Assembly (NCBI RefSeq): GCF_032062105.1
Contig: NW_026920581.1
Span: 1,178,001 to 1,242,000 of the forward strand
Direction of reading: 5' to 3'
Length of the DNA: 64,000 bases
Source: Saccostrea cucullata
Lineage: Eukaryota
The translations under genes were made by a program, and so were the position numbers. Below the pieces are notes generated by a model that did not search any database, was not told the origin of the DNA, and saw only the letters and a program-made list of their open reading frames with translations. This document shows positions 10,105 to 63,219 of the stretch, in pieces; the stretch's first letter is position 1, and each line of letters begins with the position of its first letter.

Positions 10105-10951
10105 TTAAAGCGAGCGCAGCGTCGCAAAGCGACGCTCACAAAGCGAGCTCAATAGACTAACGTGTAAGAACAGAGAAAATTCGGAATGAAATCTGTACAT
10201 ACGTCAGGCAATTTTTTCTGTGAAACATTCCCTTTACTACCCAATGTCCTTTGCGCAAATAAATAAATACTAACATACAGCATAAACGGCTTTCAGTATG
10301 TAGAAATCTTTCAGAGAAACAAAAAATAACTCTGCAATTTTTTCAACCCAAATTGCACTAGGTCTATAGTTTCAAACAGACGCTCGGCTGTCTCCGTAAG
10401 CTCAGACGAGCTCTGTGACGTCACAGGTAGTCGAGATGTCTCGCGCGGCTTGATGTTTGACGTGGCTGATCAATTTTTTCAAGTGTTTTTGATGGTATAA
10501 CTGCCAGGTCCAGCACAATACCCCGATAAAGGTTTATAGCTTGATAAAGCTATATAGCTTTATCAAGGTATTTAAAATACCTTGATCAAGGTATTTTATG
10601 TAATGAAAATTCAAAAAAAATCTTTAAAAATTAATTACTGAAAGTCGAGTTCTGAGTTGTTGTCAGTAAATTCACCCATGCATGTAAAGTACTCAAACAC
10701 AAACAAATCAGTAGAAAAACGTGTCGTGTGAGGAGACGTTATTTCATGCTTTCTTTTTGATACCAGAGCGTTTTCATGCACGAGTAGACACACTGACAAA
10801 AACTCAGAAGAGAACATGAAATACCTTGATCAAGGTATTTTAAAATACCTTGATGAAGCTATATAGCTTTATCAAGCTATATACCTTTATCGGGGTATTG
10901 TGCTGGACCTGACTGCGCTCCAACGCTTACGGTCACACCGTAAAACATATT
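10105..10951 (+). mobile_element. Helentron-like non-autonomous element (middle layer)
   Basis: T-run start; subterminal IR agcgagcgcag / ctgcgctccaacgct; 5' hairpin agcgtcgcaaagcgacgct; 3' hairpin ttacggtcacaccgtaa. Confidence 0.55.
10505..10911. mobile_element. MITE with ~90-bp TIRs and 5-bp TSD (inner layer)
   Basis: caggtccagcacaataccccgataaagg...cctttatcggggtattgtgctggacctg; TSD ACTGC at 10500-10504 and 10912-10916; TIRs built from palindromic sub-units such as aaataccttgatcaaggtattt. Confidence 0.85.
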
Positions 10952-13864
10952 AAAAATAAATTGATTTGGTAGCTAAATAAAGCTACCTCAGGTAGGTAAA
11001 TAAAGCTAAGTAGGTAAATAAAGTTACGTAGCTAAATCTAGTCATTGTACCAGACCTCGTAAGAAAAGGAAATAAAATCTCTTTATGTCTGCTAAAAACA
11101 ACATGGTGTTTGAATGAATAACAACGTTTGAATTGCTATTTATATTAAAGTAATATAACATAACATAAAATTCCATGCTTAACAAAAACAAAATTTTAAA
11201 AAATCATGCATACAAACCAAGCAGGTGCTCTATGTCACACTAAACCCTACTTTGTCTATGAAGATCAATGTAACAATAAACGTTCAACTGATTAAGATTC
11301 ATTTTGAATATTATAGTTACCTTCTTTACAGAAGAGTTCCAACAACAAAAGGAAAAACCTCTAACAGACTTACAGAGAAGATTTGGTAAATAATCAGCTT
11401 TCTTTTAACATGACATTGATTTTTATTACAAGATGCAACAGTTTTGTTAAATATGCAATCATGTATTATATATGGAATTAACAAAATTTCTTTCTTAGAC
11501 AATCTTAGTTTATTCTATCAGTGAAGATGTGGTCTGACATCTAATATCTAAGCTCATGTTCTGTTGTCATATTTGAAATCACCTATCAGTCTATAAGTTT
11601 TGAAATTTGCCTGAATGTTTTTAACGTCTTGTGTATTTTTTTGCAAATAAGTTTTTTTTTTATCGAAAAATTGCATTTGCAAACAAGCCTGTTGTTTTTG
11701 ATAACAGAATTTGCAAAATGTTAAATGATTGACTCTAAAAGAAGTTGTTGATATCCTTGTATCACCAACGTAATTGTCAATAGTCTTCCTTTTTTAAAAA
11801 ATATTCTTAAGGTGAACTTGATTTTGCATATTTTTTCAACTGGTAGACAATTAAAAACAGGGAGTAGTGAAAATTGTTGGAAATGGTGTTCCTGATTTGA
11901 TAGTCAATAGTTTTTTTCATCAGATTCTGAAACACTACATACAGGTACACAAACACCAAACTTGCTCAAATTTTTGACCCTGTAGTATATGATATACTAG
12001 GGGTCAAAAATTCAAATGAGTTTTGGTGCCTTTGATACAGGCAAGAGTATATCAGGTGGGATTTCACAATAGAAAACTTAAAGAAAATTGAATGCAATCA
12101 TAATGTTTATCATAAAGAAGAAGGTACAGTTTGGGCTTTATTTAATGTTCTTTAAAAGTTATGAAATTAGCTTTAACAATAATTGAGTAGAAGAATACGA
12201 TAAATCAGTAAAGACTATGGCACGAAGGTCAGCACCATTCTGGAAATATGACGTCAGTAATTTGGTACATTTCTATGTTCAATGCAAAACCTCAGAATGA
12301 CAAATTTCTGTGCTTAATTTCCTTTAGAAAATAGTGCTTGCCACCGTCGCCCACTTCAATTTTTTGGATATACATCGATGTATTATGTAAATTGCAATGA
12401 AAAATCACATATCTCAAAATCTATAGTAGTCTCTCTCCAACACAGGAGTTATGTTTCTTTTGTAACAATTAAGTAGAAAAAGTTACTGACTAGACCAGTG
12501 GCCTGTTGAACAAAATGAATGTTGGCCAAAACTTTCCAAGATTTATTTATCTCCAACGGAAATGTTCTTGAGCATCAGAAATGATTTAGAAACATTTTCT
12601 CAGTTGAACATGCAGGTCTCTGGATTTGAACTTGGAACTTTGAACTCTAGAAGTGTCCTTTACCAACAGCAGGGATGGGGTAATCGTAATCAGCTGTAAT
12701 CGATTACAGTTTGTCAAGTGATCATGAGTAATCAGTAATCATACATTTTTCTGATTACAAGTAATCGTAATTTAATCGATTACTCTGAAAAAAGGCCTGT
12801 AATCATGATTACTTTTTGATTACTTTATGATTACAATTACTAAAACAAAGTTCATAAAATCACGTTTTTTAATGATATTCAGTGAATATTTTCAGTGTAC
12901 CTATTTCTTTATAAGCAAAAGTTATTATAAAATCAGAAACTATATTTAGTTATATCTTCTTCTAATGCTTCCAGAAATGATTTTAATCAGGTCCATTGTC
13001 CAGGCAATGAGTATATAAATTCTATCAGTTCCTAGGTATAATCAGTTGTCAACTAGTCATTTCAAAATACTTGAGCAGCTTGGCCATTTTTACTAAGATA
13101 TATCTATTGAAAGAAAATTACTTTCAATAACAGGATCATTCTAAAGTTTGATTTTTTGGTTTTAATTAGTTAACATGCACTTGATGTAACATTTTCTTTT
13201 CCCTATAAATCCTTGATTTAACTTTTTTAAAAATCAAATGTTCCTTTTTTGCGCCATGTATTCTAGAAATCACCAATGTGTTTGATTTACAGTGTACATA
13301 AAAAGATATGTGTATTAATTTGTTTTAAAAAAAGGTATTAAGTTAGGTCAGCTTGGGTATTAACAATTATTAAACTATACATTCAACTGTTAATGTGATA
13401 AATCTTGTAAAAACATCTATTAATTGGCAGTTAAATTGAAAAAGTTCATTACTTATCACTTAATAATTATCAAGAAAGTCAATTAATTATGTAACAGTTC
13501 TCTATTGAATATCTTTATCCCTAACTATAATTCTGTTCAATTTGATTTATAAATTCCCCTCTCTCTCTCAACAATAACACAGATATCTACTTGCATTAAT
13601 TTGAAGATAGAGATAAAATGATATAATATAAAACTCATGCATCTATATGAAGAAATGGACCACCAAATTTTGTCTAAAATCTACCTTAAAAATTTAAAGG
13701 TCAAGTAGAAAGATATATGAAAATCTAAGTTTTTCTGGTTTAAACACTTCGCAAATATTACCAAAATAAAATGCTGGATTATAATTTGCTTTATTAACAG
13801 CAATAAACCATTTAAACTGGTATTAAATATACACCTGCACCGTAACCAATCTCTTTACAAACAA

Positions 13865-13901
13865 GTTATCTCCCTTCGAGAAAATGACGTCATTCGAGAC
13901 A
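13865..13901 (+). promoter_or_regulatory. Putative promoter module of the transposase (GTTATCTCCC plus CRE-containing 18-mer)
   Basis: ATGACGTCATTCGAGACA at 13884-13901, 65 nt before the ATG; exact inverted copy at 22012-22029. Confidence 0.55.
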
Positions 13902-13966
13902 CTCGCCCAAAGGACGCTGAAGAGGGTAATGAGCGAGAGATAAGTTCTTGTCAATTTTGTGAAAAT

Positions 13967-16900
13967 ATGGTGCAGTGTGCCGCACTTAACTGCACAATAA
14001 AATCTGGCCAGGGAATTAGCCTGTATTTGTTTCCGAAAGATCCCAAATTTAGAAAAATTTGGACTCTCAAATTGAGAAGAGACGGTTTTCATCCTACTCA
14101 ATACAGTAAACTTTGTGAACGACATTTTGACAAAGATCAATTCTCGATAAATCCTGACATTGCAAACAACGTAAAGTTTCAGTTAAAAAACAAGATCTTG
14201 AAATCAGGAGCTGTGCCATCTCTATTCGATTACACGGATCCCAAAGAAAAAAGGCTATCGGTTAAAAGATCAGCTAGCCCCACGTCTCAGCAACATGACA
14301 TTCACAGGCCAGACGTTAGCATGGTTGGTCGTTCCAAGTCAGATGCCCTTGCGAAAATCACCAAAAGAAGGCGCTATAACGTAAGAAAATAATTTTGAAA
14401 ACCACTATTTAAAACATTTTAATATTTTGCAATATAGAAATATGGTTATTTAGGGTGACCGGTGACTTCAATGTTCAAATATTGATAAAACAAGTAGAGG
14501 AAATTCGACCAACATATGCACATCTTCAAAACGTAAACATGGTAACAATGTTAATAGTTTAAGTTAATATTCGGAACTGATTAACAAAATGTTAACGGAC
14601 GGTGGTCAATAATAATTATTTTTGTTTAGGCATATGCATTCCTAGTCATTTATTTTGATCACGAATGTATTTTTATCACAAGAGTGGCGAATCATATCAC
14701 GAATATCTATGTGTATATAAACAAGGTAACGTGTATTTTAACACATATGTTATAACATGTACATGTATAATGCACTGGCGCATTTAGAGGGGCGGCAGAT
14801 TTAAATGGAGGTTCAGCCCCCCCCCCCCCCCCCCAATGTGCAAAATATATCAAATTTTATTTTGGTGTGACAATATGCCCCTTAAAGTATCAAGTTAATC
14901 TGGGTCCTTAGGACATTTATCATTTTAATGATAGAACATTCTATCTACCCTAACCCCAGACTAGTACCCCCTTTTTTTCAAGATTCCTGGATCGGTCACT
15001 GTATAATGCACCAATGTATATTTTTGGATTATTTAATTGCTTGCGCTAAATATAGATGAGTATTGATGCATTGCAGATTTTAGATGCCAGTGATATTGAC
15101 AATGATGAATTACCACAACCACAAGATGATCAAAGATCAGGTGACACAGTCTGTCCAGCAAATTTTAAAGAAACAAACGTTCAACATGTTCAGTGCTATT
15201 CCACAATGTCCCAGACAACATATGATGTAGTTGTAAGTTTACTTAAATGTTTATGGCTGCTCCTTTTAAAAAGGGGAGGTCTGGTTCAAAAGGGGTAAAA
15301 AATTATGATTTGAGTTTTTGATATTTCTTATGATGTGCATGTTATATACATATACATGTACCACATTTACTTAATTTTTCATTATAATCATACCAATATC
15401 TTCATATCAATATAACCAGTAAACCTATTAATGAGAATAACATGACATGATTGATATACTGTACAAGATCAAATGTTTGTTGCACTTCCCCATTCCATTA
15501 ATTTGATTCTTTGGGTTTATTTTAGAAGCGACGCCATGTAAAACTACAAACAGAAATAAACATTTTATCTCCTCCTGATGTGGAAAAGGTTTCTACAGGA
15601 ACTCAGACTGAAGAGAGAATATCTGAATATCTTGACAACAGCTTCCTGACATCCACAGATGAAGGGGATGACAATGACACAGACTCAGACTGGGTTCCGG
15701 AAAGTGAGAATGAGGAGCACGATTCTGAACAAGACATTAACCCTGCTAAGGAAAGAAAGTTTATAGTTTTTGAATCCTGCTTAGATCAATTATTTACATC
15801 TTGCTACAATTGGATGCCAATGTACATTAAGAAAGACTATCATAGGCTCATACATTAGCATTAAGAGTTTATGTGAAAACTGCAGTGCTCAGAAAAAATG
15901 GGAAAGTCAGCCTACATCTAGTGCTATGCCCCTTGGTAATTTAATCATTGCAGGAGCTGTGTTATTTTCTGGGGGCAGTGCTCACAAATTCTTAACATTG
16001 TGTAGACATGCTTCAGTTCAGATGTTCAGCATTGGAACATACATGAAAATTCAGTCATTGTATTTAGTCCCAACTATAGAAGATGTTTGGCAAAGAGAGC
16101 AGTTACATCTCTTTACAGCAGCACAGGAGTCTGGAGAACCTTTGAGGCTGGGTGGAGATGGACGGTGTTGCTCACCTGGCCACACAGCCAAATATCTTTC
16201 ATACACTTTGATGGATCTGAAGACAAACAAAATCCTGGATACACAGCTTGTGCAGGTAATTACAAACTATCAAAACAATGAAAAAATGCTTAATTTGAAA
16301 TTATTATTTTGACATTATGTTTTAAATAGATATTTCTTAATTTTCTTGAAGTAAAATTGAACTATGAGACAGAATTTAATTTTTTTTGTTGTTGCTTTTA
16401 ATGAACCATGCTTATTTTTAATCATAGAAAAATGAAGTTAGAAACTCGTATGCCATGGAGCTGGAGGGTTTACAAAGAGGGCTTGCCAGAATTGCAGATG
16501 AGGATCTACAGATTTCACATTTGGTTACTGACCGCCATTCTCAGATAAAAAAGTACATGCGTGAAACCCATCCAGAAATAATACATTGGTTTGATTGCTG
16601 GCACATTGCTAAAGGTAACTTTCCTTTATAATTATGTATACTCTATACATCTGATCATATGTTAAAAAATTATTTTACAAGTATCTTTGAGTTTTAAAAC
16701 ATACATAAACATGTACCTTGATATAAACATGTATAAAGTAAAAATTCATTTGTAAGCTAACTTGGGCCCTGCCTCAAGATATAAAGTGTACATATAATGA
16801 CAAAACTGTCTGATTTTGATAGTGTATAAAAACTTGTTAAATAATCTGTGTTCAATGTCATGAATAATAATGAATTATATTTCATTGAAAATATTCAAAA

Positions 16901-17230
16901 TATGATAAAATAGTATATTTATGTATTGAAATTAGTGAAAAAATCAATTAATTCTTGTCTCAGGAATTTACAAGAAGTTAGAAGCTGTGAGCAAGAAGAA
17001 AAACTGTGAAATTGTTGGAGATTGGGCAAGGTCCATCAGCAATCACACTTATTGGTGTGCAATGAGTAGTGGCGGAGATGGTGAGTTGGTGTACCAGAAG
17101 TGGTGTTCTATTTTGAATCACGTGTGTAATGTTCATGAGGGGCATGGTGCAGAGTTTCCCAGGTGTGAACATGGAGATCTTGAAGACCGTCTTTGGATTC
17201 GTAGAGGTACACACACATATAAATCTATAC

Positions 17231-17277
<47 letters not shown>

Positions 17278-19551
17278 GAGAGTTATTATAAGTTATTATA
17301 TATATTTTAATATCTAAATATATATATAGTAATTCCTTGTATCCGTTTAAGTTTTTAATACATTTTAAAGTCAAGGGGAATGAATATGATGAAAATCACT
17401 TCGCAGTAAGTGTCAATTCATTATAAACAAGTTTGTTATATGTGTGGTTTACTGCTTAATTAAATACTAGCTTTTCCTGTAAAAGACTGTTGCCCCCCAC
17501 CCTTATTTTAATATTTCCAGCATTAGAACTCCAAAAATACATCCTTTATGACAAGATATCAATGTTTTTAGGTTCCAAAGCTTACGATGAGTTGGAAAAG
17601 GTTGTCAAAGGCCGGCTTCTTTTGACAGATATCAGAAAAATGTCTCCTGCAGAACAGACTTCTGGGCTTGAGGCTTTCCACAAGGTGCTCTGTCATTTTG
17701 CCCCTAAGTTTGTGCACTTCTTCCATGCACAAATGGAAGCACGGTACGTAATTAACTCTAAGGAACTTTGAAAATTGAAAGCTTTATTTTGAGGTGTATT
17801 GCATGAATTACTTAAGCCTTTAATTTACACTAAGGTTTTTTAGCTCACCTGAGCTGAAATTCAAGTGACCTTTTCTGATCACATTTTGTCTATAGCCCGT
17901 CTGTCCAGCTGTCCATCCGTCTGTAAACTTTTCACATTTTTGACTTCTCCAGAACAATTTTTCGACCAAACTTGCCACAAAGGGGAATCAAGTTTGCTCA
18001 AATGAAAGGCCACACCCCTTTTCAAGGGGAGATAATTAAGAAAAAGTGAAAATTTGGTGGCATGTTTCAAAATTCTCTTTTTCAAGAACCACTGAACCAA
18101 GAGTTGAAACATATACATGTATGTGAAACTTTCCTTACGTTGTGTAGACTAAGTTTGTTAAAATGATGAACTCTAGGGGTAAGTTTTACATAGTACTGGT
18201 AATCACTAATGTATAGGAATAAATCTTTAAAAATCTTCTCAAGAACAGCAAAACTATGATTGGTAATGTTGATATGGAATCATCCTCAGGTAGTGAAGAT
18301 TAAGAATATATTGACAGACTGAATAGCTACAGTGCCACCAATTGAAAAAATGTGTATTAAAAGTGCACAAAAAAGTGTGCACAGTTCTGTATTAATTCTT
18401 TCAAATTCTTACCTCAATTGCAAAAAAGCTAGATTTCAAAAAAATTCTTACTCCTCAGTTCTGCAGCTAGATTCAAATTTGTTCAAATCAAAACCCCCAC
18501 AATGAGGGGCCACAATGGAGGATCAAATTTTTACAAAGGAATATATAGGAAAACATGTTTAAAAATCTTATATTCAAGAACATCAAAGCCATTTGTTATA
18601 TTAATGTGGAAGCATCTTTAGGAAGTCTAAAATTTAAGTCCCCCCTCCCCCATTGAACATGTATTTTTTCAATACTAAACTGATTTGTGCTTTTCAGAGC
18701 AAATGTGCTCAAGTGAGTGATGTGGCCCATGGGCCTCTTTTTCTATATGAAAAGTTTCATAAAATTATTTTCAGAATCACTTTTTATAACTTTTTATAGG
18801 TTATATTTAGCCACATTGCATTTTAATGAAAATTCAACCAGGGAGCAGGCAAAAAATCAAGATGGTGATATGATATACAGTGTTTCATACCCAAAGGGAA
18901 GGAAGGGTGAAGGAGTTGCCAAAGAAGTAAAAATTCAACAAACTTTTAGTAAGTGCATGAATATAGTTATATACCTCTTCATTTAAATTCTCAAGCCAAA
19001 AAGTGTTATCCTTGTAAGATACCAGTATTGTATGTTGGCCTTCTACAAATAAGTTTTTAATATAGACTGATACTAGAGGTATTTGAAAGGAAGGTGATTG
19101 CCAAAATTTTAAGCTTCAGTAAACTATCAATAATAAATCATTTTTGAGTGCATCGGAATGTACGGAATAGGTAATGCAGTTTTAATATTAATTACTAAAA
19201 CTCCTTGGTTTGCAAGGAGTATCAAATACCTGTACAGGGTATAATAGGGTTTCTCGATGGAGATAAGATTTAATTTTTCACATGGAAAAATAGGATTCCT
19301 TTTTTATATCTGGTCTTGTAGAAATAATAAATCCTGCATAATGTCCAGTTGCTTGCTTGTTTCAATTGACAGATTATGTGAATGAACTGTTTGAAGACCT
19401 CATCTTCAGGAGAGAAGTCCACAATTCTTATGGAGAGGCGAGAGCAGCCAAAGCAATAAATGAGAAAGAAAGACCGAGACCAATTGCTCAGATGGAAGGA
19501 AGGGCTAGAAAAGAAGACATTGTGGCTACTCATAGATCCAGATTTTATTGA
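13967..19551 (+). CDS. Kolobok transposase: THAP DNA-binding domain, DDE core and H2CH motif (~750 aa if one frameshift is corrected)
   Basis: Exons 13967-14380, 15056-15232, 15526-16255, 16428-16614, 16964-17206, 17572-17743, 18800-18948, 19373-19551, all GT-AG. THAP: C-x4-C...P...W...CERHF...AVPSLF. Core motifs: GGDGRCCSPGHTAKY (D1), LVTDRH (D2), FDCWH, NHVCNVH...CEH, QTSGLEAFH (E), LHFNEN. The frame changes at ~15811 in exon 3. Confidence 0.88.
14773..15001. mobile_element. Small MITE in transposase intron 1
   Basis: cactggcgcatttag...ctggatcggtcactg imperfect TIR, internal poly-C, flanking duplication TATAATG. Confidence 0.6.
17230..17282. repeat. Compound (TA)n(GA)n microsatellite
   Basis: Directly visible in transposase intron 5. 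Confidence 0.9.
17839..18741 (+). mobile_element. Helentron/HINE-like element in transposase intron 6
   Basis: Starts tttagctcacctgagctgaaa, has a gtcc/gtct microsatellite, ends caagtgagtgatgtggcccatgggcctcttt; same family as 35060-36115. Confidence 0.8.
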
Positions 19552-19556
19552 ATAAA
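19544..19556. terminator. Bidirectional poly(A) signal TTTATT-G-AATAAA
   Basis: AATAAA on + at 19551-19556 and on - at 19549-19544, between and overlapping the two convergent stop regions. Confidence 0.6.
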
Positions 19557-19579
19557 TATAATATTTCCAAATTCTATCA

Positions 19580-21957
19580 TTATTCTGGATATTTAAAACC
19601 ACAATAGGTTTGGGAAGGAAAAGTCTGTCTGATTTTGCTGACAACACAAGATGGTAGAATACGTCTATTCTTCTTCCCAAGAATATGATAAACCCACCGA
19701 ACAAATCTTCTGTAGGCAAAATGTCTGTAAAGTCTGAAATATTGCAGAGGATATGCTCAACATAATCCTATATGTGCACTTATTTAGGCCTAAATTAAAA
19801 TGTTTGTTTGCCCTTAGCTGACCGAACTATCGAAATTAACCCGACTCAAAATATTTTATTGCTTTTTTCATTTACAATTTTTTTTTACCGTGGTAGTTGA
19901 ATCATTTCAACCCAGTTTAAAAATGTTCTTTGAGGTCATTTAGATGCTTAATTTAGTAGTGACTAGTTTTACTTATAAATATAATGGACTACCTTTTTTG
20001 TTTATTCAGTGCTTGCAGCCCTTACCTCCTTAGATATTGGTGAGAATATAGGATGTGAAATCGACACATTCTGAGGATTCAATTTTGTTCAAAGAGGGAC
20101 ACTGGTGTTAGGTTGGGGTTAAAACTGGGGATTAAATTTTACATGACGTTTGGACCCACGTTCTTTCAAAGGAATTTAGATGGAATTTTTTTCAAAACAA
20201 CCTTTTGAAGAGCAGCAAGAGGAAAATGACGCAGTCGAGCATTGTGACCCTCATGCTTCTTGTTATAATTTTAAGAAGAGAAAATTAAATATTTCTCCTA
20301 CCTACCTGCCCATTGTTAAAAAAATCTGGGTTGGTAAAGGGCAAACAAACATTTTTTTTTAAATATTCGACTAATCATTTATTACATGTACTTTGGACTG
20401 AAAGTTTTGACAGTAAAAAGGGGGAGAGGTGGCCATATCACTCGGAAGAAAAGGAAAATGATACCTGAACAGGAAAGACAAAATTGTGAGGAAAAGTGGA
20501 CTTTCCATGAGACTGAGTTGATCTTTTTTTTTAATTGTCATTATTTTGTGAATTGTAAAGTAAAATTAAATCCTTGTTTTGATATTTCAACAGGTTTGTC
20601 CCTATTTATTGAAATACCTAGCAGGGAACATTTAGGACAATTACACGCTTAGTTTCGACTTTCAGTAAGCCTGGCATTCTCGACGTTACCTAATTAACTT
20701 CTGAAATTTACACAGCTTCCTTCACTGTTGAAATGTACATATGATAGAAATGCGGCCGAATGTCAACTGGTGTAGTAAATAGCCAATTAAAAGTTCTCTA
20801 ATGGCACAGAGGTGGGGTATAAGTCGTCTCATCGTTGTCAACAACAATTTTAAGTTCCTGATGTTATTAATTTCTTTACCGATGAGAATCTACTAGTATT
20901 CGCTATTACGTAGCGCCGGGAATGCCACGCCCTACTGAAAGTCCAAACTAAGGGGAAAATCATCCTAAAAATAATTTAATAGAAGGTGTAGGTTCTTCCG
21001 CTTACAGCTAGGGGCTTAACTGGATTATAGAGTAACTGAGGATTACATCATTATATGCAGGAAAATTCTCCGGCCCCTGGGTCTTAGGGAAACCCTGTAA
21101 TCAACAATGCTGAAATTCCCTTTGGAAGGAACACCTCCCTCCCTTGACCTGTCTATGAAACTTACTCATGGATGGGTTCTCTTTCATTTTGTCTGCCATT
21201 ATCCTGTATGTATTCATAGTAAGAAGTCTCCAACACATAATGATTTAAACAATTTACGATGAAACCTTCATGCTCAGTAATACATTGGAGAGATTTCTCA
21301 TCGACCTTTCCATTTACTATGTTGGTGTTTCGGCAGCATTTGTTTTCCCTGCTAGTAGGCATTTCCACACAGTTTCCACAATTACACCTGAAGTGAGGGC
21401 ATAATAAATCTCGCATTTGGGTTCTGGTTAAAAAATTGTTAAACACTGTATCATAGAACGTTCAGGCAAACAAATCTGACAAGCAAATAAATAAATAAAT
21501 AAGGAGACATAACTTTAAAATTCCTGTATTGATTGATTGATTTTATGTTATTTAACACCCCTCTCTAAAATTTTCACTCATAAGTCATAAGGAGACGCCA
21601 CCACTGATATCAGTTTTACCTTAAGATGTTTCCTAATATGTACGCCCGGGAGCCTGATGCATGTCATTTTATTTTTGTGGCTAAACGTAATATACATGTA
21701 AAAACACAATAAATTAATTAGGCCTAACCTACATACCAACTCTCGACAGGTTCCCTAGTGACGTCTTCAGAGCTTGTCGGCGATTCCCTTCCCGATTCCG
21801 AGTGCGATTCATGATGATCACTTTCTGACAAACTATTACATGTATTAGTAGAACGATCTTTACCCAAAGGTTCAAACATGTATGGCTGTATATGCAGTGT
21901 CAAATCAACTTCGGGTGTTTCACCGTCACTGTCATTATCTTCCATAAAACGAGCCAT
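19580..21957 (-). CDS. Kolobok accessory protein (KolX-like), homologous to the P2X7 C-terminal ballast domain, 198 aa
   Basis: Exons 21957-21737, 21387-21166, 19733-19580 (597 nt, GT-AG, in phase). Acidic N-terminus with QPYMFEP, then WCNCGNCVEMPTSRENKCC...QCITEHEGF...CLN...LYRHFAYRRFVRWVYHILGKKNRRILPSCVVSKIRQTFPSQTYCGFKYPE*. The last exon is missing from the supplied ORF track, which shows a different frame there. Confidence 0.9.
19797..20356. mobile_element. MITE in KolX intron 2
   Basis: Inverted repeat aaaatgtttgtttgccctt / aagggcaaacaaacatttt. Confidence 0.6.
20648..20952. mobile_element. Second MITE in KolX intron 2
   Basis: ~48-bp imperfect TIR cttagtttcgactttcagtaagcctggcattctcgacg / cgccgggaatgccacgccctactgaaagtccaaactaag. 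Confidence 0.7.
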
Positions 21958-22011
21958 GTCGTAATCGGAGCGTTATGATATATGGTGAGTCGATCTTTGT
22001 TTTGATATTGA

Positions 22012-22045
22012 TGTCTCGAATGACGTCATGAACAGGGGAGGTAAC
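22012..22045 (-). promoter_or_regulatory. Putative promoter module of the KolX-like gene (GTTACCTCCC plus CRE-containing 18-mer)
   Basis: The minus strand reads GTTACCTCCC...ATGACGTCATTCGAGACA, 54 nt before the ATG at 21957. Confidence 0.55.
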
Positions 22046-23956
22046 ATCGTCGGGGATAATAGAAATTGTCAGTTTTCAAACAGGTAAATCAAGCATGTAG
22101 GTGTCATTAAAAAATTGGAAACTTTAAAATCTTCATTTAATATATGGCATTGACAATATATCAACCTTTAGAGCGTTTTTATTTTCATGATACTTGACCT
22201 TTAAATATTAGAAAAATGATAAAAACATGCTGTTGCCTTTGAACATTAAACAAAGAACATTAAAAAAACTTAATGTAATCTAAAGTAATCATAAGTAATC
22301 ATGATTACATGAAGGAAAAGTAATCAGATGTAATTGATTACTTAAACAAATGTCTGTAATCAGTTTGTAATCGATTACTTTTAAAATCTAAAGTAATTGT
22401 AATTTAATCAATTACTTTTGAAAGTAATCGACCCCCCCCTCTTCCTCCAAAGAAACCTCACCAACTCAGACTTATCCTTGGAAGGTCGATCTCTTTCATA
22501 TGAGAAATGAAACAGGAAATAAGACAAAATGTATTATTTTTTACCTATTTCATTTCCATTACCGTTTGAAACTTGTGCAGGTGTTTTATGGTATAATTGA
22601 CATTAAACCTATGATGTAAAGACAGGTATTAATAATGATTAAATCGTGGCACACCATACATATATACACCATGAATATATATTTCTTGTCAGGGACAATG
22701 TCCTCTGCAGTTTACTCCACTACAAGCTCAGTGACTGCAGTTAGTAATGGTGATCACACATTGATAATCTTCTACAGTGGAAAACATCTCTCTTTGTAAT
22801 CCATCTCCTGAAAAAAAAATAGCCAGGGGGGAAACAGCTGATTCATATTTCCCCTCCAATGCGAATTGAAGAAACAGAGTTATGGCACGTAAATTAGGTA
22901 TTTCTTACTTAATTTGCTTCTTTGATTGCCATGGCCAACAAAGAATGTAGCCAGAATCGTCTGCGACTTTTGGCGACCTTTGTGGGATTTCATGTAAAAG
23001 AGCCACTGATTCTGTGTACATCTTCCAGTCTCAATGACCAGGATCTGCCAATATACAGGGATTTATAGAAATCCATTAGACATATACTTTCTAGTATTGG
23101 GAGCTTTTTCGCATCATAAGAGATTTATATATTTTTGTATTAGGAGCCTGATGTGTTTGTTTTGGGTAGGAATAATTTGTTTTTTCCAGAAGATCAATAG
23201 ATATTTAGTAGATATACTTATATACACATAATTATATATTTTGATTGGTATTTTGTTCTCTCAAGCTTGAAGAATCCATGAGGTTGTGTATTGACTGATG
23301 TAAACCAAAATAGAAACACAATAGAATATTTCTACTGTATAATTACATGTGATTAGATCTAGATATTTTAATGCCCAGGCAAGTTGCCTGTCTGGGAAAA
23401 AAGTATGAATATTACAAGTTGATTTGTTCACTTGGGTTTGTTTGATTGAATCTTGAAAGAGTGACTTTTCTAACTTTATCGATAAATGTGTTCCAAGTGA
23501 AATGTGGATAGGAGTTTTACATTTTACTAAAAAACATGGTCTAAGGAATGTTTTTTTTTTTGGTTTTAATGCAATCTTTGTTTGTTTAGATTTAAACATC
23601 AAAATCACAAAATTTTTGCCTCTGAGATAGACCTAAGTTGTTCTCACATAATACATTCAAATAATTTTATTCTTCTTTTCTCAATTTTCTCACAGTAAAA
23701 ACATAACCCCAATTAAGGTTCCAGGTTCAAGCTCCCAGAGATGGACTTTGATGATCATAAAATAGAAAAAACACACTGCATCTTTACTTTTGAACATTCT
23801 ACAAATTGTAAATTCTTCAAATTGTAAATTCTAGTGGTTCAAATAGGGCACCAAGATGGGATAAGTTTTGTCATATTATTATACCATCATCAGAAGTTTA
23901 CACTGCCGTTAAATGCAGTGTAATGGAGAGAAAACCTGTGGGTTTTTGTACACCTG

Positions 23957-35094: not shown

Positions 35095-35923
35095 CACTGT
35101 GGCTAGGCAAAGTATAAATTGGTTTATTATTGAAAAGGTAAAATCCAAAAGTAGTCCCATGAACAATCATGGATTTCTATCTTAGAGAAGAAGATTTTTA
35201 AAGAATTTTCCTATATATTTCTATGTAAAACTTTGGTCGGCCATTTTGGCCCCGCCCTACCCCTGGGGGTCATGGTTTGAACAAACTTGAATCTACACTA
35301 CCTGAGGATGCTTCCATATAAATATGATGAATTATGGCTTGGTCATTCTTGAGAAGAAGACTTTTAAAGAATTTTCCTATATATTTCTATGTAAAACTTT
35401 GGTCGTCCATTTTGGCCCCGCCCTACCCCCGGGGGTCGTGATTTGAACAAACTTGAATCTACACTACCTGAGGATGCTTCCATATAAATATAATGAATTA
35501 TGGCTTGGTCATTCTTAAGAAGAAGATTTTTAAAGAATTTTCCAATATATTTCTATGTAAAACTTAGGTCAGCCATTTTGGCCCCGCCCTACCCCCGGGG
35601 GTCATGATTTGAACAAACTTGAAACTACACTACCTGAGGATGCTTCCAAATAGATATGATGAATTATGGCTTGGTCATTCTTGAGAAGAAGATTTTTAAA
35701 GAATTTTCCTATATATTTCTATGTAAAACTTTGGTCGGCCATTTTGGCCCCGCCCTACCCCCAGGGGTCATGATTTGAACAAACTTGAATCTACACTACC
35801 TGAGGATGATTCCCCATAAGTTTCATCTTTCCTGGCACAGTGGTTCTTGAGAAGAAGATTTTTAAAACATGCCACCAAATTTTCATTAATTGCCAATTAT
35901 CTCCCCTTGAATGAGGGCGTGGC

Positions 35924-35970
<47 letters not shown>

Positions 35971-35972
35971 AG

Positions 35973-36003
<31 letters not shown>

Positions 36004-38456: not shown

Positions 38457-39445
38457 TTTAGCTCTACTGGTCAGAGACCAGAACAGCTTATGCGATAGTA
38501 ATGCATTGGGCGTCTGTCTGTCTGTCTGTCCGTCAGTCTGTCTGGCTGTCTGTAAACAATTTTTCAAAATGCTACTCCTCCTACAGTTTTAGTCTGATTT
38601 CAATATAACTTGGGACATAGGTAGACTACACGGAGATGCATAATTCTATTTATCAGATTTTGATTTTGATGAACAGTGTTGCCATTGTTACTAAAAATAG
38701 AAATTTCTGTGAAATACTTTCAAAATGCTACTCCTCCTACAGTTTTGGTCTATTTTCAATATAACTTTGCACACAAGTAGACTACATTTGGATACATAAT
38801 TCTATATATGTCTGTTTTTGATTTCAGTGAACATTATTGCAGTGATTACAAAAAATGGAAATTTTTGTGAAAAACTTTTAAAATGTTACATAATGTACAT
38901 GTACTTCAAGTAAAGGTTTAGTCTGACAATTAATATAATGTGGTATTCAAGTAAAGGTTTAGTCTGACAATTAATATAATGTGGTATACAAGTAGACTAC
39001 AATGAGATACATAAGTGTCTTTTTTGTTTCTTTGATTGATGAATGATGTTGCCATGGTGACTAAAATTGTAAATTCTGTAAAATTTTATTTAAAGCTACT
39101 CCTACAGTTGTAAGTCTTATTTCTGTGAAATACTTAAAAAATGCTACTCCAAGTAAAGTTATAGTCTGACAATAATATGATGTGGCAATAATATAATGCA
39201 TTACAAGAAGACTACAGTGAGATACCTAAGTGTCTTTTTTTGTTTCTTTGATTTGATGAATGATGTTGCCATGGAAACAAAAATTGTAAATTCTATAAAA
39301 TTTTATTTAAAGTTACTCCTACAGTTGTAGTCTTATTGCAATTTTGCCACAAAAAGAAAATCAATCAAGGACTATTTCTCTCTTAATTCCTTTGTTATAT
39401 AAGTACAAACCAGTAGAGCTGCTGTCTCGACCGAGACTTCTGGTT
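38457..39445 (+). mobile_element. Older, diverged copy of the 156-bp-unit element
   Basis: Same head and tail (ccagtagagct...gtctcgaccgagacttctggttt) with degenerate units. Confidence 0.85.
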
Positions 39446-41074: not shown

Positions 41075-41175
41075 GTAAAAGTAACAACACCCCCCCCCCC
41101 CCCCAACCCGTCATTAATACTTCAATCATGAGGTTTATAGTCACTGTAACTGTGCCTTAGCAATTTGGATTATAG

Positions 41176-41242
41176 TTAGCTCTACTGGTCAGAGACCAGA
41201 AGAGCTTATGCGATAGTAATGCGTCCGTCGTCCGTCCGTCTG

Positions 41243-41275
<33 letters not shown>

Positions 41276-42902
41276 AATTTTTCAAAATGCTACTCCTCCT
41301 ACAGTTTTGGTCTGATTTCAATATAACTTGGCACACAAGTAGACTACACTAAGATACATAATTCTGTGTATCGGTTTTTGATTTCGATGAACGGTGTTGC
41401 CGTGGTTACTAAAAATAGAAATTTCTGTGAAATTCTTTCAAAATGCTACTCCTCCTACAGTTTTAGTCTGATTTCAATATAACTTGGCACACAAGTAGAC
41501 TACACTAAGATACACAATTCTGTGTATCGGTTTTTGATTTCGATGAACGGTGTTGCCGTGGTTACTAAAAATAGAAATTCCTGTGAAATTCTTTCAAAAT
41601 GCTACTCCTTCTACAGTTTTCGTCTGATTTCAATATAACTTGGCACACAAGTAGACTACAATATGATACATAATTCTGTGTATCAGTTTTTGATTTCGAT
41701 GAACGTTGTTGCCGTGGTTACTAAAAATAGAAATTTCTGTGAAATTCTTTCAAAATGCTACTCCTTCTACAGTTTTAGTCAGATTTCAATATAACTTGGC
41801 ACACAAGTAGACTACACTAAGATACATAATTCTGTTTATTGGTTTTCGATTTCGATGAACTTTGTTGCCGTGGTTACTAAAAATAGAAATTTCTGTGAAA
41901 TTCTTTCAAAATGCTACTCCTTCTACAGTTTATGTCTGATTTCAATATAACTTGGCACACAAGTAGACTACAATATGATACATAATTCTGTGTATCAGTT
42001 TTTGATTTCGATGAACGGTGTTCCGTGGTTACTAAAAATAGAAATTTCTGTGAAATTCTTTCAAAATGCTACTCCTCCTACAGTTTTAGTCTGATTTCAA
42101 TATAGCTTGGCACACAAGTAGACTACACTAAGATACACAATTCTGTGTATCGGTTTTTGATTTTGATGAACGGTGTTGCCGTGGTTACTAAAAATAGAAA
42201 TTTCTGTGAAATTCTTTCAAAATGCTACTCCTTCTACAGTTTTAGTCAGATTTCAATATAACTTGGCACACAAGTAGACTACACTAAGATACATAATTCT
42301 GTGTATCGGTTTTCGATTTCGATGAACTTTGTTGCCGTGTTTACTAAAAATAGAAATTTCTGTGAACTTCTTTCAAAATGCTACTCCTTCTACATGCAGT
42401 TTTAGTCTGATTTCAATATAACTTGGCACACAAGTAGACTACAATATGATACATAATTCTGTTTATCAGTTTTTGATTTCGATGAACGGTGTTGCCGTGG
42501 TTACTAAAAATAGAAATTTCTGTGAAATTCTTTCAAAATGCTACTCCTCCTACAGTTTTAGTCTGATTTCAGTATAACTTGGCACACAAGTAGACAACAC
42601 TAAGATACACAATTCTGTTTATCAGTTTTTGATTTCGATGAACGGTGTTGCCGTGGTTACTAAAAATAGAAATTTCTGTGAAATTCTTTCAAAATGCTAC
42701 TCCAAATACAATTTTAGTCTGATTATAATATGAATGTGGCATGCAAGTAGACTGCACTAAGAACATAAAGAGACTTAATCAAGGATCATTATTCTATTTA
42801 TTGCTGTTGAAAAGTTTCAATTTCCAACTATTAAGTACTTTTCTCTTCCTTTGCTATAAGTACAAACCAGTAGAGCTTCAGTCTCGACAGAGACTTCTGG
42901 TT
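41176..42902 (+). mobile_element. Third copy of the 156-bp-unit element (~9 units)
   Basis: Head and tail almost identical to 31737-34068; units run from 41283 to ~42690. Confidence 0.9.
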
Positions 42903-42989: not shown

Positions 42990-43900
42990 TATAAGATAAG
43001 ATAAGATAAGATTTATTAATACCAATTTGGGGCCCATCAGGGCATACAAGTAATAAGGAAAAAAAAACATACAAGCAGAAATTCAAAATTGATAGCAGTA
43101 ACTAACAAAAGATAAATGATGTTACAGCAGTTGGGGATTACAACATACATAATCAATATACTGTAAATAAAAGTTTGTTTAAAGTATTTCTATATATTAC
43201 TCTTTTGTATTTATTTGTTTCTTTGTTTAACATTGCATAATTTGCTATTTCTTATTTTAAAGATATTGATTAAAAAATTACCCAGCTTGATAAGCAACAT
43301 GTCATCTTCATTAGACATAATCCATAAAAATTTTTCTTTATTTGTTAAAGTATAGAAATTTTTATTACTTTTAGCAATAATATTAAAAAAGTCATCTCTA
43401 TCATGCTTATATAATGGACATTCAATCAGTGAGTGTATCTCATCTTCCACACAGTTCATGTCGCACATTCTACAAATTCTTTCATTTCTTGCAAGGGTGG
43501 TTTGCTCTCCAGCAGAGTTTAGTTTTTTTTCGTACCTTCCACTTTCTATTCTGAGGTTATGTGAACTCACTCTAAATTTGCATATAATTTTTCTTTGTTC
43601 AAAATTTTTTGATAATAAATACTTTTCAATTTCAAAACTTCTTTTTATATAGAAATATGTTGTAAGTTTACCCGATAGACAACCATCATCTCTTTGTTTA
43701 AACCAATATTGAAGGAAATCTTCTCTAATAATTTTTTTCAGATGTTTCTTTAAAGTTATTAGTTTCATTGATTTACATCTTGACAAATCTATGCCCATTC
43801 TGTTACAGAAATATGTTACATTTGAAAACTAACTATTTACATTACAACTGTCCAAGATAATGCTTTCTTTGTATGCACTGTATAACAAAGAGTCTATATG
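42990..43900 (-). mobile_element. 5'-truncated non-LTR retrotransposon (RTEX-like 3' end)
   Basis: ORF 43211-43798 has FRVSSHNLRIESGRY...RICRMCDMNCVEDEIHSLIEC (post-RT CCHC knuckle). The 3' end is AATAAA followed by a (TCTTA)n tail at ~43017-42990. Confidence 0.8.
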
Positions 43901-44959: not shown

Positions 44960-45385
44960 CCTCTAAAACATCAGAGTTGGTATCAAGTGCCATGGAGGTG
45001 TGAGCATCCCCTGTCGACCAGTCACACCAGCCGTGTGCTCCTTGTAATGATGGTAAATTGCTGCATAAGTAAGGGAAGTTGAAAAGTTAAAATCATCATG
45101 TTTATCATAAAGCTTGGTTGTTAGATTAACATGAATGTCTTTTTCAAGTAAAATATCCAAATATGAAGATGTGTTAGGTTCTGTGGTATCTTTTATCTCA
45201 AGCTCACCAGGATATGAATAACCATTGTTAATTGAAAATATGTCGTTGATATATTTAAATTCGAGTTGAAGGCCACAGTAAGGTTTTTTTTTCCACATAT
45301 AAGATTTTGGAAAAATTCTGCTTCATATGAATACAATAATAGGTTTGCTAATAATGGGGCACAATTGGTACCCATGGGAAATTCA
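44960..45385 (-). mobile_element. Degenerate Penelope-like reverse transcriptase fragment
   Basis: PMGTNCAPLLANLLLYSYE, YINDI (decayed YIDD) and SYLDI...TKLYDK.DDFNF across frameshifts. Confidence 0.75.
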
Positions 45386-46581: not shown

Positions 46582-48405
46582 GATCACTGATTGGTAGAAT
46601 TTTGTTAAATATATAAACTTAATTTATACAATTGACACAAGAAGGAGAAAATAGACAAATATTATTTGAAAACAGTTATATTATTCTAAGGAACTTTAGA
46701 TTAATGTGTACAACAAACTTTCAAACTAATTACATACAGATCGTTAGATGAACTGATTTCATAGGGTCATATGACGCTTGATTGAAGGAATTGTAAAAGA
46801 AAATTATCAATGAGAATCGACATCTGCAAACAAATAAGGCTTACTAACAAAACAGAAAATAAAGATGAGTTGCTTTGGGACAGAAAATCCCGACTTATTT
46901 AGAGAAAATACTAGTAACTAAAATAACTAAGCATGCAAACAATTTTAGCATGAAGATTTTGAATGAGTTCTTACGAGTGCGCTGTGTAAGCACCGATATT
47001 TTCCGGCTCGTGCACCATGTGTCAAACCCTGCCTACTATTTAGGCATATAAGTAAATGCATAATGCAACACTATTATATAAATATTGTAAAGTTGGCCCC
47101 TGTTTAATGAATGTGTGTGGAGGTGTCTATGAAAAAAAAACAACATTAGTAATAATTTACGGGTACTTGATTAAAAAAGGATGAGAAAAGAGGTCTTTTT
47201 AGGATATACTTAATTTCCATGCCCCATCCCACTTTAATTATTCTATTTGTTTAGTACTTTCAGACATACAGTGGTAGAAATATGGATAAATTTGACCTTG
47301 ACCTGTAGCTGGGTGATGAACCTAAAAAAAAAGTATTTGACAAAACAGTTACAAGTCTTGCAAAAAGAAAAAAAAGAAAGAAAAATTTTACAAGTGTCGA
47401 GGCTTATTTCTATCTTTAAGTTATTACAATAGCTATATAAACCAGACCTGTTCATGTGGTACATCTGTGCAAGTTTTATGCATTGAAAGCATAAGTCTGT
47501 AAATCGCCTCATTTGATAGAGAGCTACATTGCAAGATGCAGTGACTAAAATTGAAAGGAAATGGGATTTAGCTCCTGTCCAGTGAATTGCATAGAAGTAA
47601 TGTACATAGCACTATATTTTGTATATATATACATGCAGCATATGTCTAATGCAGCAATTTTGAAATAAACCATATTTGGAGTGTGCCCCAGAGGGGAATA
47701 TTTCTTCCACTAGAACATCTTCAGTTGATGTTTGGATGCAAGACAAAAGCATATATCTTGTATTCCCTTCCTATATAATAATAAAAAAAAGAAACAGACT
47801 ATCTTTATTTGCTGCATGTTCCAGATAAACATGAAATGTAGACTTGGTAGTTTTTATGAATTATCAGTTTCTGTTAAGAAGGACTCAGGAATATTATATT
47901 GATCATCTATCAGAACCTCTTTTTAAATGTGACCAAATTAAGGGCTCAGTGATTTATTATTTGGTGGGGGATATAAAGATTGGAGATAGTTTAGTGAGTG
48001 GTGACAAGGACCTGGGCTCTCAGTTGAGATGTGAGATAACATGAGTTCTGTGCTTATTCTGAGGGGAGGGAGTCGGGTGTTTGGAATCAGTTACTCCAAC
48101 AACAGGCCAGACAGTTACAGGTATATACTGATAAATTTTTATCGATGTAAACAAAAAATTGTATGCATAGATTGACCAGCATAGTTTTTTGGAATTTTTA
48201 TTTTTATAGTTGAAATTCATTAATGATCAAAGCTTGAAATATATTTTTAAAAAAACTTTTTATGATGTTTAGAATTTTTTCCTACCAGGTATTTAATTGC
48301 CATCATCATTTTAACCTATACAAATTTTTTTTGTCATTGTATAGAACTTTGAAAAACTTAGGTGAAAAACTGAGACTTTTGCTGCTAAACGTATATTCAT
48401 TTTAC

Positions 48406-48784
48406 TTAAGGAATGAAGCTGATTTCAACTTATGTTATCCGATATAACATAACTTGGGGCAGTTTACGCTTTATAAACCACTTCATAAACCGCGAAGCGG
48501 TTTATAAGAAAGCGTAAACTGCCCCAAGTTTTGTTATATCGGATAACATAAGTTGAAATTAGCTTCATTCCTTATAATTTAATTTCTATATAGATAATGA
48601 GACAATTATTTCCCCCGGAAAAGGGCTTCAAAATGAGCATTATTTTAAAAGTAACGTCAAGCGGAGTAATACGTTTTTGACGTAAATCATTGTGACGTAG
48701 GCAAGTTATGTTATACAAAATGTTATATGTTACTCTGAATGATTCAGCCAATGAAATTGCTTGATACAAGTGAAATTAAATTAT
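48406..48784 (+). mobile_element. Hairpin element (Crypton-like), copy B
   Basis: Palindrome 48407-48574 plus a tail highly similar to 24624-24990. Confidence 0.7.
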
Positions 48785-61100: not shown

Positions 61101-63219
61101 ATGGATTTACATGTCCCACGTCGATGTTTTGTAGATGTAAACAATGCTAATTGAATCCAATTGTATATAAATAAAAACAAAGAAATGGATAGATTAGAAA
61201 ATGTGCAAGATCAAAAAATCTAGATATGCAGTTTGTCATTAGATATACCTGTATATCATAATGGTTATTTCCCATAGAACTGAAATAGCAGGGGACACTA
61301 AAAAGTAAAATGGGGCTTCTGGTTCCTTCTCTTACAGAGGAAATATCAGTACTTGTTTAACTGGAAAAATACAATGTTATAGGTGGGGAAATTCCTTGAC
61401 CCTCAAGTCAAAAGGACAACCCCTGTCATAACATGATGTATAAATTAATTATTACAGGATATGGACATCAGCTATTGGACTTGCTGCCGTGGGATCGACT
61501 CTAAAAGTGGTGATGGGTACACACGACATGTGGCAGTATTTCCCTCTGGACGGTCTGTCCTGGACAAACTACACAGTGTTACTGTCATATCCATTTCTGT
61601 AAGTGTCTCAACAGTGGCTCTACATATACAGGCAAACCTTGTTATCTCAAACTTGACAGATCAAACTTTGATATTATAAAGTATATCTCAGAATTCTAGA
61701 TAACAAGGGTCAAAATGTAAAGGACTCCAACACAGTTTGACCTTTCTCTTGTATTTGAGGTAATGGTGTTTGAGGTAAATAGGTTCAACTGTATTTTGTT
61801 CAGTGTTAATTTGTCTGTCTACAACATGTATAAATTATTTCCAATATCATTTATATCCAACCTTATATTCATAAAGGTACTTGGACACAGATTTGAAGTT
61901 ATTATTTTCTCTATAATATATATATATATTAATAGCATTTTACAAAAAAATTAATTTTTTTTTTCGTTTAAAAGATATTGAAATTTCTAATTTTTCGGCG
62001 GGTTTGATTGACATATCGTACATATCCTTGCACTCTCACAAGTTTAATTTTATTCTTAATCCTTAGGAAAAGTGGCAATCTCGTTTTGTATAAATGAAAA
62101 ATATTAATACTATAATCCAGAAAATTCTGTCTCTGTGTCGAAAGCAAAACAAACACACAATATATTGTCATCCGTGCAGTTGTGGTAAGCTGCCTATGTG
62201 TTTGACGCACCCGGTGAATTCTAAATATAAACAATAACAGAACTGAGCCCTGTCATCTCTTAGTTGAATGACGATACTTGTGAAGGTGTTTTGCTTTCTA
62301 ACATTTTTTTAAAATTATTTTTCTTGATAAAAGTTTTAATATTTCTCATTAAAACACATCAAAATTGCCACTTTTCCTAAGGATTAAGATTTTTGAAAGT
62401 GCAAGGATGTGTTAATCAAACCCGCCAAAAAATTTAAAGTTTTAATAACTTTTAAATGAAATAAGATTTTTAAATAATTTTTGTGTGAAATGCTATTAAA
62501 ATATATAATTCGTGATATTATACAGAAAAAATGAGAAAATATTAACTCCAAATATGTGTCCAAGTACCTTTAAGATATATATGAATCGTGAGAACTTTTA
62601 AGATATATATGAATTGGGAGAACTTAAGTGCATGGAGTTGGACCTACTCTCTTTACATGCATTTGTACCCCAGAGACCAAAAGGTAAGGTTGAGATACTG
62701 GCTGTGGTGTGCGCCTCAGAAAGCATTACATATAGAAACTGAATTTTTTTTCATAAGTGTGACCCTTAAAAAATATATAGATTCATACATTGACTTTCTA
62801 TTCCTGGCTTGAGTATTCCAGGAATGTATTCTGTCAAATTATCAACTGTCAGGCACGAGAGGAAAATTAATTGATCAGGAATAAATGCTATTGTCAGCTT
62901 TATTAACATGACAAATAACATTTCCCATGGTGCTGCAATTTAACACTAGCTCCGTATCCCATTCAGAATGTGTCATATTCAGCCACCTAGGACATAAAGA
63001 TACTACAGGTCTATTTTCAGTGCACTTTATCACAATTTGACAGCTTTTGTTAATAGTAGTAAATAATATATTCCCTTTAACAGGCAGAGTCCAAACAGAA
63101 CCAGTATAACCCTGGAACAGCCAGACGGCAGCACTGTATGGAACGCCAGCTTCAACCTCTCCTCCGAACATCCGGAGCAGATGCCATTTAATGCGTACTC
63201 ACCGGAGGCATCTGTGAAG
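55112..63219 (+). CDS. Glutamate carboxypeptidase II / NAALADase / transferrin-receptor-like (peptidase M28B) type II membrane protein, first four coding exons
   Basis: Exons 55112-55393, 60411-60484, 61458-61598, 63084-63219 are phase-consistent. Signal-anchor VLLLVVCFFVGLIIGYVI, then W-QYFPLD...NYTVLLSYP...PN...PFNAYSP, matching the GCPII W..FGLD...YDVLLSYP...PN...PFSAFSP region. A probable upstream exon ends at 54476. The gene continues beyond the window. Confidence 0.82.
55689..56026 (-). mobile_element. Short Helentron/HINE-like element
   Basis: aactagagg-gtgagcgatgagctcac hairpin, (gacg)n microsatellite and cccgcttttcaagcggggggtataa end. Confidence 0.7.
58763..59222 (-). mobile_element. 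Short Helentron/HINE-like element with a two-unit internal repeat
   Basis: aacaagagatgtttgtaaaaca...atatgccctcccttctttgaagaggggcataa; same family as 6258-6570. Confidence 0.7.
61875..62569. mobile_element. Kolobok-like MITE with long TIRs
   Basis: ataa|aggtacttggacaca...tgtgtccaagtacct|ttaa; the inverted match continues to ggcgggtttgatt / aatcaaacccgcc. Confidence 0.75.

Follow-up and report, generated by a model that had tools for sequence, protein, structure and literature searches.

A probably recent Kol0-lineage Kolobok insertion in Saccostrea cucullata, with a transposase frame broken as assembled

Features of the locus

We analysed a 64,000-nucleotide stretch of the Saccostrea cucullata genome (GCF_032062105.1, NW_026920581.1 1,178,001-1,242,000; hereafter the window, whose positions serve as coordinates) that holds a two-gene Kolobok element between positions 13694 and 22204. 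The element carries a THAP-DDE transposase gene on the plus strand and a second gene, KolX, on the minus strand. We consider it highly probable that this is a recently inserted copy of the Kol0 lineage whose transposase frame is broken as assembled and which would be mobile only by means of enzyme from intact sister copies. The features observed, with their basis, were as follows.

13257-13697 and 22205-22435, no strand: left and right halves of an older repeat interrupted by the element (paralogues of the host repeat)
13694-13697, no strand: left TTAA target-site duplication (TTAA on both sides at five of five distinct full-length sites)
13698-13707, plus: left 10-bp terminal inverted repeat (TIR), beginning 5'-AG, AGGTCAAGTA (sequence and copies)
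13866-13874, plus: C-rich box of the left end, a candidate THAP site, 169 bp from the tip
13884-13901, plus: left 18-bp internal inverted repeat with a core, TGACGTCA, like a cAMP response element (CRE), 82 bp upstream of the transposase ATG
13967-14380, plus: transposase exon 1, THAP domain (Pfam PF05485, E=2.8e-14)
15077-15232, plus: transposase exon 2 (database model P0275; RNA contig X5-6 continues for 156 nt past exon 3, fitting this length)
15526-16255, plus: transposase exon 3, lacking 2 bp at 15810 (comparison with sister copies; first catalytic D codon at 16157)
16428-16614, plus: transposase exon 4, second D (TDRH) and DxxH (sequence motifs; RNA contigs)
16964-17206, plus: transposase exon 5, H2CH-type zinc-finger residues (conservation; RNA contigs)
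17572-17743, plus: transposase exon 6, catalytic E (TSGLE; sequence motif)
17837-18740, no strand: abundant repeat inside intron 6, in all six copies (copies; very high RNA-read depth)
18800-18948, plus: transposase exon 7 (RNA contigs)
19373-19551, plus: transposase exon 8 and stop (joint 18948-19373, GT..AG, in four of four RNA runs)
19580-19733, minus: KolX exon 3 and stop (PF20478, P2RX7_C, E=1.1e-9)
21166-21387, minus: KolX exon 2, cysteine cluster (homologue comparison)
21737-21957, minus: KolX exon 1 (same sequence as P0280; whole open reading frame (ORF) of 198 amino acids (aa), intact)
22012-22029, minus: right 18-bp internal inverted repeat, 172 bp from the tip
22036-22044, minus: right C-rich box, 157 bp from the tip
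22191-22200, minus: right 10-bp TIR, ending CT-3', TACTTGACCT (sequence and copies)
22201-22204, no strand: right TTAA target-site duplication (sequence)

Element ends and copies in the genome

The TIR is perfect and exactly 10 bp long. Taken alone, inverted-repeat pairs bounded by TTAA are not rare here, with 10 pairs found among the 660 TTAA sites of the window, and the element ends were accepted because they also enclose five further near-identical copies that lie in different flanks. Genome matches to the left and right 300 bp numbered 12 and 8 places, respectively, and the whole element with these ends was observed in six contigs, the window copy and five sisters. The copies in C18125 and C13779 share flanks, as do C19959 and C4472, and each pair was counted once; because of the shared C18125/C13779 flanks, the copies represent five distinct insertion sites rather than six. 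Divergence among the five clean copies was 0.20-0.46%, introns included, while the C13779 copy was ~1% divergent with many indels. The original prediction had described intact TTAA-bounded ends with a 10-bp inverted repeat and proposed counting full-length copies and looking for empty TTAA sites; the ends were seen as described, the same ends were found on the five sisters, and the count came to six contigs at five distinct sites.

The empty site was recovered in paralogous form and not in allelic form. The two halves of the interrupted host repeat adjoin in eight of the nine paralogues examined (of 40 matches), and four of these have a single TTAA at the site. No allelic empty site was found in the assembly for the three flanks searched (window left, C21408 and C10121), and the best other assembly match to the window left flank was 81%. 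Present-day activity is therefore no more than a possibility.

Structural differences were seen at two other loci. In the C10121 copy, a T run in intron 7 of the transposase gene (after window position 19301) is interrupted by 2355 bp of inserted sequence, which starts like the intron-6 repeat and leaves the reading frame unchanged. L017 (C14307:30877-35213) is a relative of the element, 4.3 kb long, older (~88-91%) and internally deleted, with a right flank other than TTAA.

Transposase gene and family membership

All nine introns of the element (seven in the transposase and two in KolX) are GT-AG, and exon 2 has an alternative acceptor at 15056, 21 bp upstream, that is likewise in frame. The transposase contains the motifs GGDGR, VTDRH, DCWH and TSGLE, placing D402, D469, DxxH 490-493 and E611 in a frame of 743 aa, with the catalytic E assigned by likeness to rows of Data S5 (PMC9587614) and not from an invariant column. 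When searched singly, exons 3-8 gave no Pfam match. The predicted structure of P0001, built from 92 sequences, had a predicted local distance difference test score (pLDDT) of 85.9, and its top PDB matches were ISCth4 (E 2.5e-6), Hermes and the P element. Residues H343, H368, H373, C383 and H385 of P0001, corresponding to the H2CH finger, were at least 90% conserved over the 92 sequences. The predicted 8-exon THAP-DDE transposase with its D, D, DxxH and E motifs was seen.

The window copy as assembled lacks two bases of this gene. Exon 3 measures 730 bp in the window, compared with 732 bp in four sisters and 738 bp in the fifth, and because the 2-bp loss at 15810 shifts the frame, the first stop falls at codon 301 of 743, ahead of D402. 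The full 743-aa transposase (using the downstream exon-2 acceptor, as in P0275) was open in four of the five sisters, and the fifth is broken further downstream, in a noisy contig. Judged by an open transposase frame, the family thus looks autonomous and the window copy, as assembled, does not, so that the description of a complete, reconstructable autonomous element failed for this copy.

In the passages of Kojima and Bao (2022, PMC9587614) used here, Kolobok is defined by TTAA and RR..YY ends, and Kol0 by the transposase together with KolX; Kolobok-1_XT, originally from Kapitonov and Jurka 2007, is described there as a Kol0 (Kolobok0) type element. Every family feature that could be tested was found: a 4-bp TTAA duplication (five of five distinct full-length sites), termini of the form 5'-RR...YY-3' (AG...CT), a DDD/E arrangement with C/DxxH after its second D and before its E and a fold matching ISCth4, Hermes and P, an H2CH zinc finger between DxxH and E, the N-terminal THAP domain, and a KolX with the ballast fold and seven cysteines. 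On these sequence features, and not by a tree, we place the element in the Kol0 lineage of Kolobok, with a THAP-DDE transposase and KolX, in agreement with the predicted identity and two-gene layout. It resembles Kol0 and Kolobok-1_XT in all of the above, including the likeness of KolX to the P2X7 cytoplasmic ballast, and by eye its motif order equals the Kolobok_2_DR and Kolobok_1_BF rows of Data S5. It differs as a new species-level family with 7+2 introns, for which no identical row was found in the Data S5 text searched, and in its fixed-distance internal motifs, unmentioned in the searched passages of PMC9587614.

Two other systems were compared, again from parts of the papers. For Xenopus, young full-length copies as well as the motifs (THAP, DDE and H2CH) are described by Hikosaka and Konishi (2018, PMC6004289). 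The Xenopus XKol elements and T2-MITEs (miniature inverted-repeat transposable elements) share AG termini, TTAA, short TIRs, young multi-copy families and some frameshifted alleles with the oyster element, although the T2-MITEs are assigned to Kolobok by end motif only, and the XKol transposase is a single long ORF whereas the oyster gene is split by seven introns. The Drosophila P element (PMC7776569) likewise has a THAP-DDE enzyme of the DxxH clan, a short TIR, internal inverted repeats and internal binding sites spaced unequally at its two ends, but it has an 8-bp duplication, a 31-bp TIR, sites 9 and 21 bp inside the TIR, a GTP-binding insertion and no second gene. By analogy, the P element may serve as a model of working and is not taken as a relative by membership.

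Two other assignments were rejected. KolobokP has long terminal direct repeats and a His-Me nuclease; here the left 300 bp matches once on the contig and the second gene is KolX. Elements of piggyBac type also use TTAA, with termini other than RR..YY (a distinction taken from passages of PMC9587614), whereas the ends here are AG..CT.

The second gene, KolX

The original prediction of a convergent accessory gene was borne out by three KolX exons on the minus strand with GT-AG introns. The KolX and transposase stops are 28 bp apart, and the 198-aa frame was open in the window copy and four sisters. KolX residues 71-197 align with the P2X7 ballast (473-594) at E 1.8e-10 with seven cysteines matched; in contrast to the P2X7 ballast structures (PDB 6u9v, 8tr5), KolX is free-standing and without the channel part. 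A search returned 2050 KolX relatives at E<=0.001, and KolX-like matches in the gene catalogues of this oyster numbered 101, at least some labelled 'P2X purinoceptor 7-like'. The original prediction had forecast annotation as unrelated host genes, and this was observed for KolX by that label, for the transposase of the locus, which database models split at the break into two 'uncharacterized' proteins of 182 and 419 aa, and for a sister transposase named 'THAP domain-containing protein 1-like, partial'. The derivation of the P2X7 tail from KolX is already published (in the parts of PMC9587614 seen), as is the element type, so the finding itself is ordinary.

The pairing of the two genes recurs. 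Where THAP and KolX matches lay on the same contig within 50 kb in this genome, 40 of 43 pairs were convergent (a count that took in 99 KolX places and 63 of 106 THAP places), as were all 26 metagenome loci with both genes (of 80 loci). A complex prediction of transposase 80-562 with KolX 15-198, made without alignments, scored 0.49 compared with 0.00 for the best of three controls; contacts agreed by at least 37% between runs and the partner pLDDT was at least 61. In calibration, solved complexes attained this mark in 51 of 78 cases and mismatched pairs in 2 of 108. Telling against a bound subunit, scores of 0.60 or less included only 5 of the 78 solved complexes and all 4 passing mismatches, so a score of 0.49 falls where such predictions are wrong more often than right. 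The model thus points weakly to binding, and we propose only tentatively that KolX may be a zinc-stabilised accessory subunit that binds the transposase.

Expression

Four of 24 RNA runs were compared with the window, from animals other than the assembled individual. The intron 7 joint was observed in all four runs and the intron 3 joint in three, and contig pieces end at other exon borders. The RNA departs from the window sequence at many positions, and so it shows that the family is transcribed and spliced, and not that the window copy is. Among the joints listed for the four runs there was no transposase exon 1-2 joint and no spliced KolX joint, the latter a point against our explanation. 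One spliced RNA contig extends to 19868, antisense across KolX exon 3. Within 19373-20622, transposase transcripts run antisense through KolX exon 3, and therefore the two RNAs can pair.

Subterminal motifs and end geometry

An identical 18-mer with the TGACGTCA core lies 187 bp inside the left end and 172 bp inside the right end. For a comparison of ends we took 30 loci on the THAP side, 30 on the KolX side and family C (one of two families, B and C, that share the 10-bp tip; see below), dropped loci without a visible TTAA-AGG tip and retained one end per family (nine left, nine right); most pairs were 52-64% alike and three were 73-90% alike. The core was observed at 160-205 bp in 15 of these 18 oyster ends (shuffles mean 0.29, max 3), and at 165-215 bp in 7 of 10 held-out metagenome ends (shuffles mean 0.2, max 2), one of whose tips was picked between two candidates after viewing both. 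The C-rich box was found at 169-170 bp in seven of nine left ends (one more at 166) and at exactly 157 bp in five of nine right ends.

Length was conserved in the outer part of the ends. In family B the standard deviation of length was 0.3-0.7 bp across positions 1-170, which stay within ±1 bp, compared with 9-11 bp across 201-370, which do not. We also observed that AA/TT/TA steps in positions 61-155 keep a 10.3-10.5-bp phase relative to the tip (Rayleigh p of 0.01 for oyster and 0.0009 for held-out ends; 40 cells of position window and period per set, on ends that are not independent). Periods of 7, 9 and 12-14 bp showed no such phasing (at 8 bp the oyster set gave p 0.04), and neither did the interior or the flanks used as controls, where a single flank value had p 0.05. 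In absolute band power, circular shifts equalled all 25 ends in 0 of 1000 cases; for oyster left ends the number was 19 of 1000, for oyster right ends 3 and for held-out ends 1.

The ends may work as follows. By comparison with IS256/MuDR, hAT and P, an RNase H-like core formed by D402, D469, DxxH 490-493 and E611 would cut at the 10-bp tips and join them to a new TTAA. The THAP domain would bind an internal site, for which the C-rich box at 169/157 bp is the best candidate by analogy with the P-element THAP domain, and host bZIP factors most likely use the TGACGTCA cores as promoter sites that face inward. Constrained in length and helically phased, the outer ~155 bp could bend or wrap and in this way bring the box to the tip, a step to which we give about even chances. 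Taken together, Kol0 ends would be ~200-bp machines in which a helically phased spacer of nucleosome length and locked size (157 bp at the right end, 169 bp at the left) brings the THAP box to the cleavage site, host bZIP factors at TGACGTCA set chromatin and drive both genes, and KolX, the ancestor of the P2X7 tail, is a bound subunit; this full combination we regard as unlikely. If functional, fixed-length phased ends would be an undescribed rule for Kolobok, and MITEs could be assigned to partners beyond their first four bases.

Several results weigh against the machine-like ends. The box pattern was drawn from the same ends on which it was counted, and the same pattern at 140-185 bp occurred in none of the 10 held-out ends (one near-match at 168). 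One of the three phasing tests was negative, with 130-504 of 1000 shifts as strong once the spectrum was normalised, and the ends share ancestry. The held-out ends hold typical promoter words in the same zone, some of which we take to be YY1-, ETS- and KLF-like, and a promoter role for the zone is therefore favoured. The mirrored motifs could be simply promoter sites, of host bZIP and GATA-like type, that remain where an ancestral TIR of ~190 bp had its inner edge; spacing would then have no role in transposition. This is a serious contender that we place somewhat below an even chance. In line with it, the TIRs of one held-out family are near-perfect over 180-190 bp and stop just past a TGACG half-site, and each mirrored motif lies 55-135 bp upstream of an ATG. 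However, on the transposase side (seven families) the CRE core keeps to 181-187 bp from the tip, but its separation from the ATG ranges over 73-135 bp; left and right positions 11-160, as a remnant long TIR, are no more alike than shuffles (80 vs 76±3.8), yet the box holds to ±1 bp; and the non-coding family B keeps the motif at 99% along with the length pattern above.

A literature search found no paper linking Kolobok with TGACGTCA, nor, by titles and abstract starts, any on nucleosome or periodicity geometry of Kolobok ends; KLF/GATA/RUNX sites are given for a Xenopus Kolobok MITE, not in this geometry (in the part of PMC12676858 seen). Two metagenome loci (L200, L207) are compact 3.3-kb Kol0 elements with near-perfect 180-190-bp TIRs, and L200 ends 68 bp beyond its KolX match, an apparently truncated KolX.

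Status of the window copy

A truly intact and autonomous window copy, with the 2-bp loss an error of the assembly consensus, is a rival explanation that we think rather unlikely. The loss is the sole coding indel of the copy, and it may be an assembly error given that private 1-bp losses occur in every copy but one and that C13779 is full of them; small private deletions are found repeatedly in other contigs, 28 of them in one contig, and the two bases absent at 15810 are also present in RNA contigs of two runs. However, apart from this loss the window contig is just as clean as the sister contigs (private substitutions 20 against 16-19, deletions 3 against 2-4), and the RNA comes from other individuals and could be from any copy. 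Variants specific to the window copy include those at 15178 and 16695. The missing bases form one unit of a dinucleotide repeat, a usual site of slippage. Database models labelled Saccostrea cucullata carry the private variants of the locus, and are no proof of a real deletion because they were built on the same assembly. A recent insertion with a broken frame thus remains our preferred explanation. Four natural open-frame copies with defined ends offer a ready test system for the superfamily and for the job of KolX; no Kolobok transposition assay turned up in the literature listing.

Candidate partner elements

The original prediction named a TTAA-flanked MITE at 61875-62569 as one that the element may mobilise. 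The MITE is real, a member of an abundant ~780-bp family (3038 first-look candidates) with 29-37-bp matching ends; TTAA bounds each side of all 19 other copies listed, but the left flank of the MITE itself is ATAA. Mobilisation of this family by the transposase is very unlikely: both have AGGT ends and TTAA sites, but the MITE TIR differs from base 5, its copies have neither the C-rich box (four copies) nor the CRE core (three copies), and its end was absent from all 30 KolX-side and 30 THAP-side loci examined. The MITE was rejected as a partner, being of a different family with only AGGT shared and no common end sequence or subterminal motifs.

The 14-mer of TTAA plus TIR occurred 159 times in the genome compared with 28 for its reversed control. 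Sixteen two-ended stretches were fetched, 12 of family B and 4 of family C (2.5-9.8 kb); they lack a transposase core and some retain the first THAP codons, and family B has its own coding relative (C2199). Sharing the 10-bp tip and motif layout, families B and C appear likelier passengers than the 61875 MITE, the better candidates being non-coding elements of 2.5-4.4 kb.

That the locus is instead two domesticated host genes, a THAP protein and a P2X7-like protein tail to tail by chance, fits the database names and published domestications of Kolobok transposases and KolX (Nanor and the P2X7 tail; parts of PMC6004289 and PMC9587614), but is refuted for practical purposes by identical ends in five flanks, 0.2-0.46% divergence including introns and insertion into a repeat.

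Compound arrangements were also observed. Two family-B elements lie head-to-tail with one TTAA in common (L075, C2516:18374-27245), and at least four copies of the 61875 MITE are likewise head-to-tail, sharing a single TTAA (L065, C11869:1889-5023). A family-C element (L077, C4955:72176-75027) has a left-type end on both sides and matching flanks, and is probably an inverted duplication.

Rest of the window

Two long single-exon ORFs on the minus strand (25392-27110 and 29963-31702) contain B-box-like cysteine motifs, a coiled coil and NHL-like repeats, and we take them to be TRIM-like; the second is broken by a stop at ~31181. Arrays of a 156-bp unit (~25 copies) occupy three blocks (31768-33954, 38512-39347, 41124-42830), and a 166-bp array lies at 35186-35983, with related array pieces in intron 6 of the element. 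Minus-strand ORF fragments at 43211-43828 and 44963-45322 presumably resemble the ends of non-LTR (long terminal repeat) or Penelope-type retroelements. Other long inverted-repeat elements were observed at 10505-10911, 24621-24791 and 48400-48721.

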